A DNA stretch of 64,000 nt, from NCBI RefSeq assembly GCF_030013595.1, contig NZ_CP122768.1. One strand, 5' to 3'. Below, one piece after another: positions 4,060-33,466 of the stretch. The position numbers were made by a program, and so were the translations under genes. The DNA comes from Escherichia coli. Its GTDB lineage: Bacteria > Pseudomonadota > Gammaproteobacteria > Enterobacterales > Enterobacteriaceae. Positions within the stretch are counted from its first letter, which is position 1; the number at the start of each line of letters is the position of its first letter. A model generated the notes under the pieces. The model searched no databases. It saw nothing but the letters and a program-made list of their open reading frames with translations, and was not told the DNA's origin.

Positions 4060-4170
4060 CACCGTCTGACGTGCTACGCCTGTCAGGCCTATTCGACTCC
4101 TGCAATATATTGAATTTGCATAGTTTTGTGGGGCGAATAAGGCGTTCACGCCGCATCCGGCGTGAACAAA
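4060..4170. repeat. REP/BIME-type palindromic repeat cluster in the cho–nadE spacer
   Basis: gcctgtcaggcc and ggcgttcacgccgcatccggcgtgaac palindromes typical of REP units; the overlapping 64-aa ORF is spurious. Confidence 0.5.
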
Positions 4171-14082: not shown

Positions 14083-14152
14083 TGGATACACATCTTGTCA
14101 TATGATCAAATGGTTTCGCGAAAAATCAATAATCAGACAACAAGATGTGCGA
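14083..14152 (-). ncRNA. IS10 RNA-OUT antisense RNA (position inferred from the known IS10 map)
   Basis: In IS10, pOUT lies just inside the outside end and transcribes outward across the transposase translation start; coordinates derived from the element map, not from a read-off of promoter motifs. Confidence 0.4.
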
Positions 14153-26048: not shown

Positions 26049-27977
26049 ATGCCTGTTATAACTCTTCCTGATGGCAGCCAACGCCATTACGACCACGCTG
26101 TAAGCCCCATGGATGTTGCGCTGGACATTGGTCCAGGTCTGGCGAAAGCCTGTATCGCAGGGCGCGTTAATGGTGAACTGGTTGATGCTTGCGATCTGAT
26201 TGAAAACGACGCACAACTGTCGATCATTACCGCGAAAGACGAAGAAGGTCTGGAGATCATTCGTCACTCCTGTGCGCACCTGTTAGGGCACGCGATTAAA
26301 CAACTTTGGCCGCATACCAAAATGGCAATCGGCCCGGTTATTGACAACGGTTTTTATTACGACGTTGATCTTGACCGCACGTTAACCCAGGAAGATGTCG
26401 AAGCACTCGAGAAGCGGATGCATGAGCTTGCTGAGAAAAACTACGACGTCATTAAGAAGAAAGTCAGCTGGCACGAAGCGCGTGAAACTTTCGCCAACCG
26501 TGGGGAGAGCTACAAAGTCTCCATTCTTGACGAAAACATCGCCCATGATGACAAGCCAGGTCTGTACTTCCATGAAGAATATGTCGATATGTGCCGCGGT
26601 CCGCACGTACCGAACATGCGTTTCTGCCATCATTTCAAACTAATGAAAACGGCAGGGGCTTACTGGCGTGGCGACAGCAACAACAAAATGTTGCAACGTA
26701 TTTACGGTACGGCGTGGGCAGACAAAAAAGCGCTTAACGCTTACCTGCAGCGCCTGGAAGAAGCCGCGAAACGCGACCACCGTAAAATCGGTAAACAGCT
26801 CGACCTGTACCATATGCAGGAAGAAGCACCGGGTATGGTCTTCTGGCACAACGATGGCTGGACCATCTTCCGTGAACTGGAAGTGTTTGTTCGTTCTAAA
26901 CTGAAAGAGTACCAGTATCAGGAAGTTAAAGGTCCGTTCATGATGGACCGTGTTCTGTGGGAAAAAACCGGTCACTGGGACAACTACAAAGATGCAATGT
27001 TCACCACGTCTTCTGAGAACCGTGAATACTGCATTAAGCCGATGAACTGCCCGGGTCACGTACAAATTTTCAACCAGGGGCTGAAGTCGTATCGCGATTT
27101 GCCGCTGCGTATGGCCGAGTTTGGTAGCTGCCACCGTAACGAGCCGTCAGGTTCGCTGCATGGCCTGATGCGCGTACGTGGATTTACCCAGGATGACGCG
27201 CATATCTTCTGTACTGAAGAACAAATTCGCGATGAAGTTAACGGATGTATCCGTTTAGTCTATGATATGTACAGCACTTTTGGCTTCGAGAAGATCGTCG
27301 TCAAACTCTCCACTCGTCCTGAAAAACGTATTGGCAGCGACGAAATGTGGGATCGTGCTGAGGCGGACCTGGCGGTTGCGCTGGAAGAAAACAACATCCC
27401 GTTTGAATATCAACTGGGTGAAGGCGCTTTCTACGGTCCGAAAATTGAATTTACCCTGTATGACTGCCTCGATCGTGCATGGCAGTGCGGTACAGTACAG
27501 CTGGACTTCTCCTTGCCGTCTCGTCTGAGCGCCTCCTATGTGGGCGAAGACAACGAGCGTAAGGTACCGGTAATGATTCACCGCGCAATTCTTGGGTCGA
27601 TGGAACGTTTCATCGGTATCCTGACCGAAGAGTTCGCTGGTTTCTTCCCGACCTGGCTTGCGCCGGTTCAGGTTGTTATCATGAATATTACCGATTCACA
27701 GTCTGAATACGTTAACGAATTGACGCAAAAACTATCAAATGCGGGCATTCGTGTTAAAGCAGACTTGAGAAATGAGAAGATTGGCTTTAAAATCCGCGAG
27801 CACACTTTGCGTCGCGTCCCGTATATGCTGGTCTGTGGTGATAAAGAGGTGGAATCAGGCAAAGTTGCCGTTCGCACCCGCCGTGGTAAAGACCTAGGAA
27901 GCATGGACGTAAATGAAGTGATCGAGAAGCTGCAACAAGAGATTCGCAGCCGCAGTCTTAAACAATTGGAGGAATAA
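26049..27977 (+). CDS. thrS: threonyl-tRNA synthetase
   Basis: 642-aa ORF; recognised ThrRS with class II aaRS motifs. Confidence 0.97.
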
Positions 27978-28523
<546 letters not shown>

Positions 28524-28595
28524 GGCCTTCAAGTAGCACTGTCTGTGGAGCCTTCGGGCTTCACAGGCTTTGTTCGCCTTTGTTTCGTTTATTAA

Positions 28596-28817
<222 letters not shown>

Positions 28818-28842
28818 GCCGTTAACGTTTTTAACTTTTTAA

Positions 28843-29226
<384 letters not shown>

Positions 29227-29233
29227 GCCAGTT

Positions 29234-29262
29234 GAAAGAGGGAGCTAGTCTCCCTCTTTTCG
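29234..29262 (+). terminator. intrinsic terminator after rplT
   Basis: aaagagggag-ctag-tctccctcttt hairpin with T-run. Confidence 0.6.
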
Positions 29263-29348
29263 TTTCAACGCCATCAAAACATTGACTTTTATCGCCGTAG
29301 CCTTTTCAATAAAGGTTTTTTGAAAAGTACCAAAAGGTAACGCAAGCA

Positions 29349-29393
29349 ATGAATGCTGCTATTTTCCGCTTCTTTTTTTACTTTAGCACCTGA
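29349..29393 (+). CDS. pheM: pheST attenuator leader peptide ([14 protein letters not shown])
   Basis: 14-codon ORF with 5 Phe codons in 14, followed immediately by the attenuator terminator. Confidence 0.85.
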
Positions 29394-29440
29394 CTCCAGG
29401 AGGCTAGCGCGTGAGAAGAGAAACGGAAAACAGCGCCTGA

Positions 29441-29466
29441 AAGCCTCCCAGTGGAGGCTTTTTTTG
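29441..29466 (+). terminator. pheST attenuator terminator
   Basis: aagcctcc-cagt-ggaggctt stem followed by tttttttg. Confidence 0.7.
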
Positions 29467-29634
29467 TATGCGCGTTTTGAAAAATAAAAAGCCTGTCTCA
29501 TCAGGCGTAATTGTCGCAGCCAGTCTGGACTCGGCCAGCGCGGAGAAACCGGAGCGTACTTAAGTACGTGAGGATTTCGAGCACTGCCCGGGACCAAAAT
29601 GGCAAGTAAAATAGCCTGATGGGATAGGCTCTAA

Positions 29635-30660
<1,026 letters not shown>

Positions 30661-30671
30661 GGCAGGAATAG

Positions 30672-33062
<2,391 letters not shown>

Positions 33063-33066
33063 ACCT

Positions 33067-33366
33067 ATGGCGCTTACAAAAGCTGAAATGTCAGAATATC
33101 TGTTTGATAAGCTTGGGCTTAGCAAGCGGGATGCCAAAGAACTGGTTGAACTGTTTTTCGAAGAGATCCGTCGCGCTCTGGAAAACGGCGAACAGGTGAA
33201 ACTCTCTGGTTTTGGTAACTTCGATCTGCGTGATAAGAATCAACGCCCGGGACGTAACCCGAAAACGGGCGAGGATATTCCCATTACAGCACGGCGCGTG
33301 GTGACCTTCAGACCCGGGCAGAAGTTAAAAAGCCGGGTCGAAAACGCTTCGCCCAAAGACGAGTAA
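33067..33366 (+). CDS. ihfA: integration host factor alpha subunit
   Basis: 99-aa [60 protein letters not shown]…. Confidence 0.95.
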
Positions 33367-33380
33367 TCTGATCTAACTAA

Positions 33381-33410
33381 AAAGGCCGCTTTGCGGCCTT
33401 TTTTCTTTTC
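33381..33410 (+). terminator. intrinsic terminator after ihfA
   Basis: aaaaggccgc-tttg-cggcctttttt plus T-run. Confidence 0.65.
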
Positions 33411-33466
33411 ACTGTCGAAGAGTCACCGTAAAATCAACGCCATGACACTTCAGCAGAACGGATACC

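Follow-up and report, generated by a model that had tools for sequence, protein, structure and literature searches.

Analysis of the window (the whole stretch of Escherichia coli DNA under study, 64,000 nucleotides) indicated that the region directly upstream of pheS is, almost certainly, the E. coli pheM leader with its ribosome-mediated transcription attenuator, controlling pheS-pheT(-ihfA). Every defining feature of the pheM attenuator that can be tested in silico is present: a short phenylalanine-rich reading frame, an RNA that can fold into protector, antiterminator and terminator hairpins, and a choice among these that depends on the position of the ribosome. The pheM-pheST attenuator is already known and nothing about the locus is new; it has served as a characterised case of leader-peptide attenuation since 1983, and present-day pipelines annotate it. 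The sole loose end of the locus is a dispersed repeat lying between the attenuator and pheS. The coordinates of all features are collected in Table 1.

Table 1. Features of the pheM-pheST region and other Rfam matches in the window
Feature	Position	Strand	Details
ES036	4085-4127	-	Rfam, at gathering score
RNA-OUT	14083-14152	-	Rfam, at gathering score
Terminator-like hairpin after rplT	29237-29265	+	AGAGGGAG / CUCCCUCU then UUUCGUUU
Candidate sigma-70 promoter of the pheM-pheST transcript	29282-29310	+	TTGACT 29282-29287, 17-nt spacer, TTCAAT 29305-29310; read from the sequence
Shine-Dalgarno-like AAGG	29335-29338	+	10 nt 5' of the pheM ATG; putative, judged from the sequence only
pheM leader ORF with TGA stop (29391-29393)	29349-29393	+	translation; pheM annotation in near-identical genomes
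Protector (1:2)	29358-29434	+	5' arm 29358-29381 over the Phe codons, 3' arm 29411-29434; MFE structure
Hairpin inside the protector	29383-29407	+	holds the antiterminator 5' arm; MFE structure
Antiterminator (2:3)	29399-29448	+	GGAGGCUAG.GCGU (29399-29412) pairs with GCGCCU...AGCCUCC (29433-29448)
Intrinsic terminator (3:4)	29439-29465	+	stem 29439-29448 / 29453-29462, loop CAGU, T-run 29459-29465
Imperfect palindromic dispersed repeat, MITE-like	29486-29632		147 bp; about 20 nt past the pheM terminator, inside the pheS 5' UTR
pheS (PheRS alpha), first regulated gene	29677-30660	+	TIGR00468 equivalog, 401.6 bits vs cutoff 237
pheT (PheRS beta)	30675-33062	+	TIGR00472 equivalog, 1008.9 bits
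ihfA (himA), last gene of the K-12 pheST-ihfA operon	33067-33366	+	TIGR00987, 182 bits
STnc540	33308-33466	+	Rfam, at gathering score; overlaps the ihfA 3' end and the ihfA-btuC spacer
RprA	58077-58184	-	Rfam, at gathering score
rydB	63789-63849	+	Rfam, at gathering score

Identity of the leader and its operon

The preliminary description had placed a pheM leader peptide and attenuator upstream of pheST and had proposed a comparison with Rfam leader models. That reading is borne out by Rfam, by the RefSeq and K-12 annotation, by the pheS-pheT context, by the folds and by conservation, which all agree. The Rfam model RF01859 (Phe_leader) matched positions 29343-29467 on the + strand over its full length (1-125) with 74.4 bits, above its gathering score of 55 (E = 3e-12), and the reverse strand gave just 25 bits. 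The segment 29200-29700 is 99.8% identical to many RefSeq E. coli genomes, in which the same bases are labelled "Phe leader region" and "pheM: pheST operon leader peptide PheM". The counterpart in K-12 MG1655 is b1715, the "pheST-ihfA operon leader peptide". Regarding the gene neighbourhood, thrS, infC, rpmI and rplT lie upstream of the leader and pheS, pheT and ihfA downstream.

It should be noted that the RF01859 consensus appears to mix pheM with the pheA leader (pheL), and resembles the pheL sequence. The Rfam match alone cannot separate pheM from pheL, so the pheM call rests on gene context and on identity with K-12. The pheL/pheA attenuator was rejected as an identity for this leader, since the genes downstream are pheS and pheT, not pheA. 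A T-box leader was discarded as well, as no T-box covariance model matched at E <= 10 in 27900-30000 and none reached the gathering score anywhere in the window. The weak Rfam matches to sX9, Dicty Class I, mir-5444, SraG and BTnc231 were far under their gathering scores and were taken as chance.

Translation of the window gives a pheM reading frame of 14 codons from the ATG at 29349, with the codons ATG AAT GCT GCT ATT TTC CGC TTC TTT TTT TAC TTT AGC ACC TGA. Five of the seven consecutive codons 6-12, spanning 29364-29384, encode phenylalanine (codons 6, 8, 9, 10 and 12, being TTC, TTC, TTT, TTT and TTT). Thus, the 14-codon frame with five Phe codons claimed beforehand translates exactly as described, and the limits given for leader and attenuator, 29349-29470, are accurate. 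On the other hand, the remark that such a leader is easily missed by gene callers is untrue for NCBI PGAP, which annotates pheM routinely. Among the 934 ATG reading frames of 8-40 codons on both strands of the 64-kb window, seven carry five of one residue inside seven codons, and pheM is the sole phenylalanine case among those seven.

Leader structures and their response to the ribosome

The leader RNA is strongly structured. The whole leader (29343-29470) folds at -53.7 kcal/mol, compared with -32.5 +/- 3.6 for 200 dinucleotide shuffles (z = -5.9), none of which folded as well. The terminator hairpin, GAAAGCCTCC-CAGT-GGAGGCTTTT at 29439-29462, has 10 pairs, five of them G-C, is followed by seven T and reaches -14.9 kcal/mol when folded alone. 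The preliminary description had claimed a GC-rich hairpin and a T-run after the leader frame, and had named the lack of a stable terminator hairpin as the result that would speak against it; a 10-bp stem (5 G-C) running into seven T is what was found, and it is part of the MFE fold. The protector, folded alone, reaches -37.3 kcal/mol. The antiterminator pairing sequesters the 5' arm of the terminator, and the two structures are in this way alternative folds.

Folding was repeated with the ribosome represented by a mask, in which the RNA behind its front edge was removed and the transcript was ended at 29450, short of the terminator 3' arm. With the front edge at 29376-29397, corresponding to a ribosome stalled with a Phe codon in its A site, the antiterminator formed at -17.0 kcal/mol. 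It was weakened to -9.9 kcal/mol with the front edge at 29400, past the Phe codons, and at 29403 or beyond, with the ribosome at the UGA (29391-29393), it was gone (about -5 kcal/mol), leaving the terminator free to form. Three states were therefore obtained under masking: the protector leads to the terminator, a stall on the Phe codons to the antiterminator, and a ribosome at the stop codon to the terminator. The alternative antiterminator and terminator structures whose search by RNA folding had been suggested at the outset were both found, and they respond to the position of the ribosome as the attenuation model requires. This three-state logic can be recovered purely from masking the ribosome footprint.

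Equilibrium folding of the complete leader was rejected as a model of the switch, since it gave no clean switch; one appeared only with the transcript cut ahead of segment 4 of the terminator, a cut that imitates the order of synthesis. In masked folding of the full-length leader, the terminator was the MFE structure at nearly every ribosome position, and the antiterminator won only with the front edge at 29391, by a margin of 0.1 kcal/mol. As the terminator is the equilibrium structure almost throughout, the decision to read through must, in this model, be a kinetic one, set by the order of synthesis, and it lies beyond what folding can demonstrate.

According to the proposed mechanism, transcription would start near 29317-29322, probably from the TTGACT/TTCAAT promoter, and a ribosome would translate the 14-codon leader while RNA polymerase makes the downstream segments. 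When charged tRNA-Phe is plentiful, the ribosome would reach the UGA at 29391 and cover some 12-15 nt downstream of it (distances estimated from a ribosome footprint), including GGAGGCU (29399-29405) in the 5' arm of the antiterminator. With this arm covered, AGCCUCC (29442-29448) would be free to pair with GGAGGCU (29453-29459), and the terminator hairpin and its U-tract would release the transcript ahead of pheS. When charged tRNA-Phe is scarce, the ribosome would stall on the Phe codons, breaking the protector and leaving 29399-29412 exposed to pair with 29433-29448 once the polymerase has made that segment. The resulting 2:3 antiterminator (-17 kcal/mol) would form ahead of the synthesis of the terminator 3' arm, and therefore the polymerase would read through into pheST. 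In a leader that is not translated, the 1:2 protector (-37 kcal/mol) would form and termination would be the default.

This scheme has a published counterpart. Attenuation at pheM operates in vivo in K-12, where the leader is translated and readthrough increases under limiting charged tRNA-Phe (Springer et al. 1983, J Mol Biol 171:263, as cited in PMC9291695), and an RNA polymerase pause within pheM with a half-life of about 25 s has been described (PMC9291695). Moreover, pheM is on the EcoCyc list of leader peptides used in PMC7815308, and it is treated as an established attenuator leader in PMC9291695, PMC5371410 and PMC7815308.

Conservation across Enterobacterales

Homologues were sought in 100,044 species genomes with the first 26 bases of pheS as the anchor, so that the search was independent of the leader itself. 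At least 120 loci were obtained, and those listed include Citrobacter, Enterobacter, Klebsiella, Salmonella, Kluyvera, Kosakonia, Erwinia, Pantoea, Edwardsiella, Serratia, Rouxiella and Mixta. The leader is present in most of the listed loci with enough upstream sequence, and the pheM peptide is nearly invariant across about 100 Enterobacterales loci among the matches listed. In these loci one form of the peptide is typical of Enterobacteriaceae, and Erwiniaceae, Edwardsiella and Serratia have close variants of it (e.g. ...FSA). The pheM and pheS ATG codons are 157 to 465 nt apart in the Enterobacterales genera listed; past the attenuator, the spacer appears either tolerant of insertions or prone to them in several genera (e.g. 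about 244-309 nt in Citrobacter and Klebsiella).

To count base pairs, 88 distinct leaders were aligned (alignment A4) and structures slid along the alignment served as the control. The terminated fold was paired in 94.5% of cells, against at most 63% in the slid control, and 4 of its 41 pairs had changes on both sides. The antiterminator was paired in 89.5% of cells (slid control at most 53%), with both-side changes in 1 of 13 pairs, a covariation no better than that of the column-shuffle control. The protector was paired in 94.7% of cells in the 88 homologues, with three pairs changed on both sides, and the terminator in 96.1%. A region this conserved yields little covariation, and its variation is too low for strong statistics. 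RNAalifold on a MAFFT alignment recovered the protector helix and only two terminator pairs, the others being lost because loop-length differences shift 7-10 rows.

Each of the 88 distinct leaders was also folded separately. The terminator was in the MFE structure of 87 of the 88, and the protector was likewise found in 87/88. An antiterminator capturing at least six of the seven bases of the terminator 5' arm was obtained in 85 of 87 (the other two were weaker), and in 87 it disappeared once the ribosome was placed at the stop codon. These results revealed conservation of the peptide, and of each of the three helices, across Enterobacterales.

Conservation also bears on whether the hairpin could be a mere constitutive terminator, or an RNA-stability element, between the rplT and pheS units, with the Phe-rich frame a by-product of T-rich DNA that senses nothing. 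The region is indeed T-rich, single-residue runs like that of pheM recur in the short frames of the window as counted above, and the terminator is favoured at equilibrium for almost every ribosome position. However, the reading frame, its FRFFFYF core and the position of its stop are kept across many of the genera listed although the spacer to pheS varies as widely as it does, and the antiterminator is conserved as well and is lost exactly when the ribosome is at the stop codon. Furthermore, rplT already has a separate terminator (29237-29265), and attenuation in vivo has been published, as cited in PMC9291695. An unregulated terminator is accordingly very improbable here.

The genes next to the leader, thrS, infC and rpmI-rplT, are under protein-mediated translational control. 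The leader RNA might by analogy be regulated mainly by a protein or a nuclease (e.g. by RNase III, or by PheRS acting on its own message in the manner of the thrS operator) rather than by ribosome stalling, and RNase III does cut inside the attenuator structure of pheM and makes the downstream message decay faster (PMC5371410), but the same source describes RNase III as an added layer on the established attenuator, no second conserved structured element lies beside the pheS start, where the spacer is highly variable and is interrupted by a repeat in E. coli, and this explanation is scarcely credible. Nothing observed contradicts control by ribosome-mediated attenuation.

Flanking elements and comparison with known systems

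Upstream of pheM, TTGACT and TTCAAT separated by 17 nt are a candidate for the pheM-pheST promoter, at a position that is putative. The consensus promoter scan called nothing upstream of pheM, and this pair went uncalled for want of an A at position 2 of the -10 hexamer. Between rplT and this presumed promoter, the hairpin at 29237-29265, which the consensus terminator scan did not pick up, has a folding energy of -17.2 kcal/mol (z = -3.6); it would separate the rpmI-rplT unit from the promoter.

The base at 29317, 32 nt 5' of the pheM ATG in the presumed promoter or start region, is T in the window and C in K-12 and the nearest genome. None of 5408 complete E. coli genomes is identical to the window over 29285-29350, and the T at 29317 is absent from all of them. 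It was rejected as a promoter variant, as over 8 kb the window shows 3-7 differences per kb from its nearest genomes in any case, and the T is probably ordinary strain divergence.

Further upstream, alignment with the RefSeq annotation places the start of infC at an ATT (AUU) codon at 27981-27983, four bases past the thrS stop; this is the known unusual start codon of IF3. The mechanical listing of reading frames misses this ATT and gives a GTG at 28089 instead. A 632-aa reading frame lies upstream of thrS on the - strand (23628-25526), where the near-identical genome 2012C-4221 has espL1, a type III secretion effector gene; this suggests that the strain may have an EPEC/EHEC-like background. 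Among the other Rfam matches of the window, RNA-OUT is an IS10-type antisense RNA, implying a putative IS10-like element nearby.

Downstream of the attenuator, the palindromic repeat has 17-nt terminal inverted repeats, AGCCTGTCTCATCAGGC and GCCTGATGGGATAGGCT, at 29490-29506 and 29614-29630. Its RNA forms a single long hairpin when folded (-71.3 kcal/mol, z = -7.2). Of 5426 complete E. coli genomes, 4781 (about 88%) carry the repeat at this site and the rest lack it here, cleanly so in strains such as TCM3e1; among the loci listed, it occurs at this site in Escherichia only. There are about five copies per genome, one of them between qseG and glrK. RefSeq carries no annotation for the repeat, and the K-12 RefSeq record marks neither copy as a repeat feature. 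A canonical ERIC element can be dismissed, since the agreement with the ERIC2 primer is limited to about 13 of 22 bases. The repeat may be the "RSA" repeat of older K-12 annotation, which is 150/151 bp long and has six copies in K-12 (PMC5172473).

Both terminal inverted repeats (29491-29506 and 29613-29630) score as terminator-like on the - strand, with a hairpin and a T-rich run, and could stop antisense transcription. There is no T-run at them on the + strand, and therefore they should not stop transcripts that read through to pheS. That the repeat changes the stability, the processing (e.g. by RNase III) or the translation of pheST mRNA is an unlikely proposal; if true, it would mean a strain-level polymorphism in the setting of PheRS expression after the attenuation decision.

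Compared with known systems, the locus is the pheM-pheST attenuator itself and not a relative of it. The peptide, the reading frame and the protector, antiterminator and terminator sequences are identical to those of K-12 pheM (b1715), as are the order rplT-pheM-pheS-pheT-ihfA and the distance of 284 nt from the pheM stop to the pheS start. Within 29343-29470 there is a single difference, C in the window and A in K-12 at 29394, in a hairpin loop just past the stop. Further differences lie at 29317 and 29325, upstream of the reading frame, and at several positions inside the downstream repeat, and no difference touches a paired position of the attenuator.

The pheL/pheA attenuator shares with pheM a short Phe-rich leader frame followed by 1:2, 2:3 and 3:4 structures, and is matched by the same covariance model, RF01859. 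Its peptide differs from that of pheM, and it regulates a biosynthetic gene, pheA, whereas pheM regulates aminoacyl-tRNA synthetase genes. The trpL, hisL, leuL, thrL and ilvL leaders likewise use a ribosome stalled at cognate codons to pick the antiterminator or the terminator hairpin, but they control biosynthetic operons. As pheM controls a tRNA synthetase, its signal, charged tRNA-Phe, is made by the very enzyme under regulation. Finally, the T-box riboswitches upstream of pheS in Firmicutes have the same function, attenuating the transcription of aminoacyl-tRNA synthetase genes in response to tRNA charging; the T-box, however, binds uncharged tRNA directly and has no leader peptide, whereas pheM has one.
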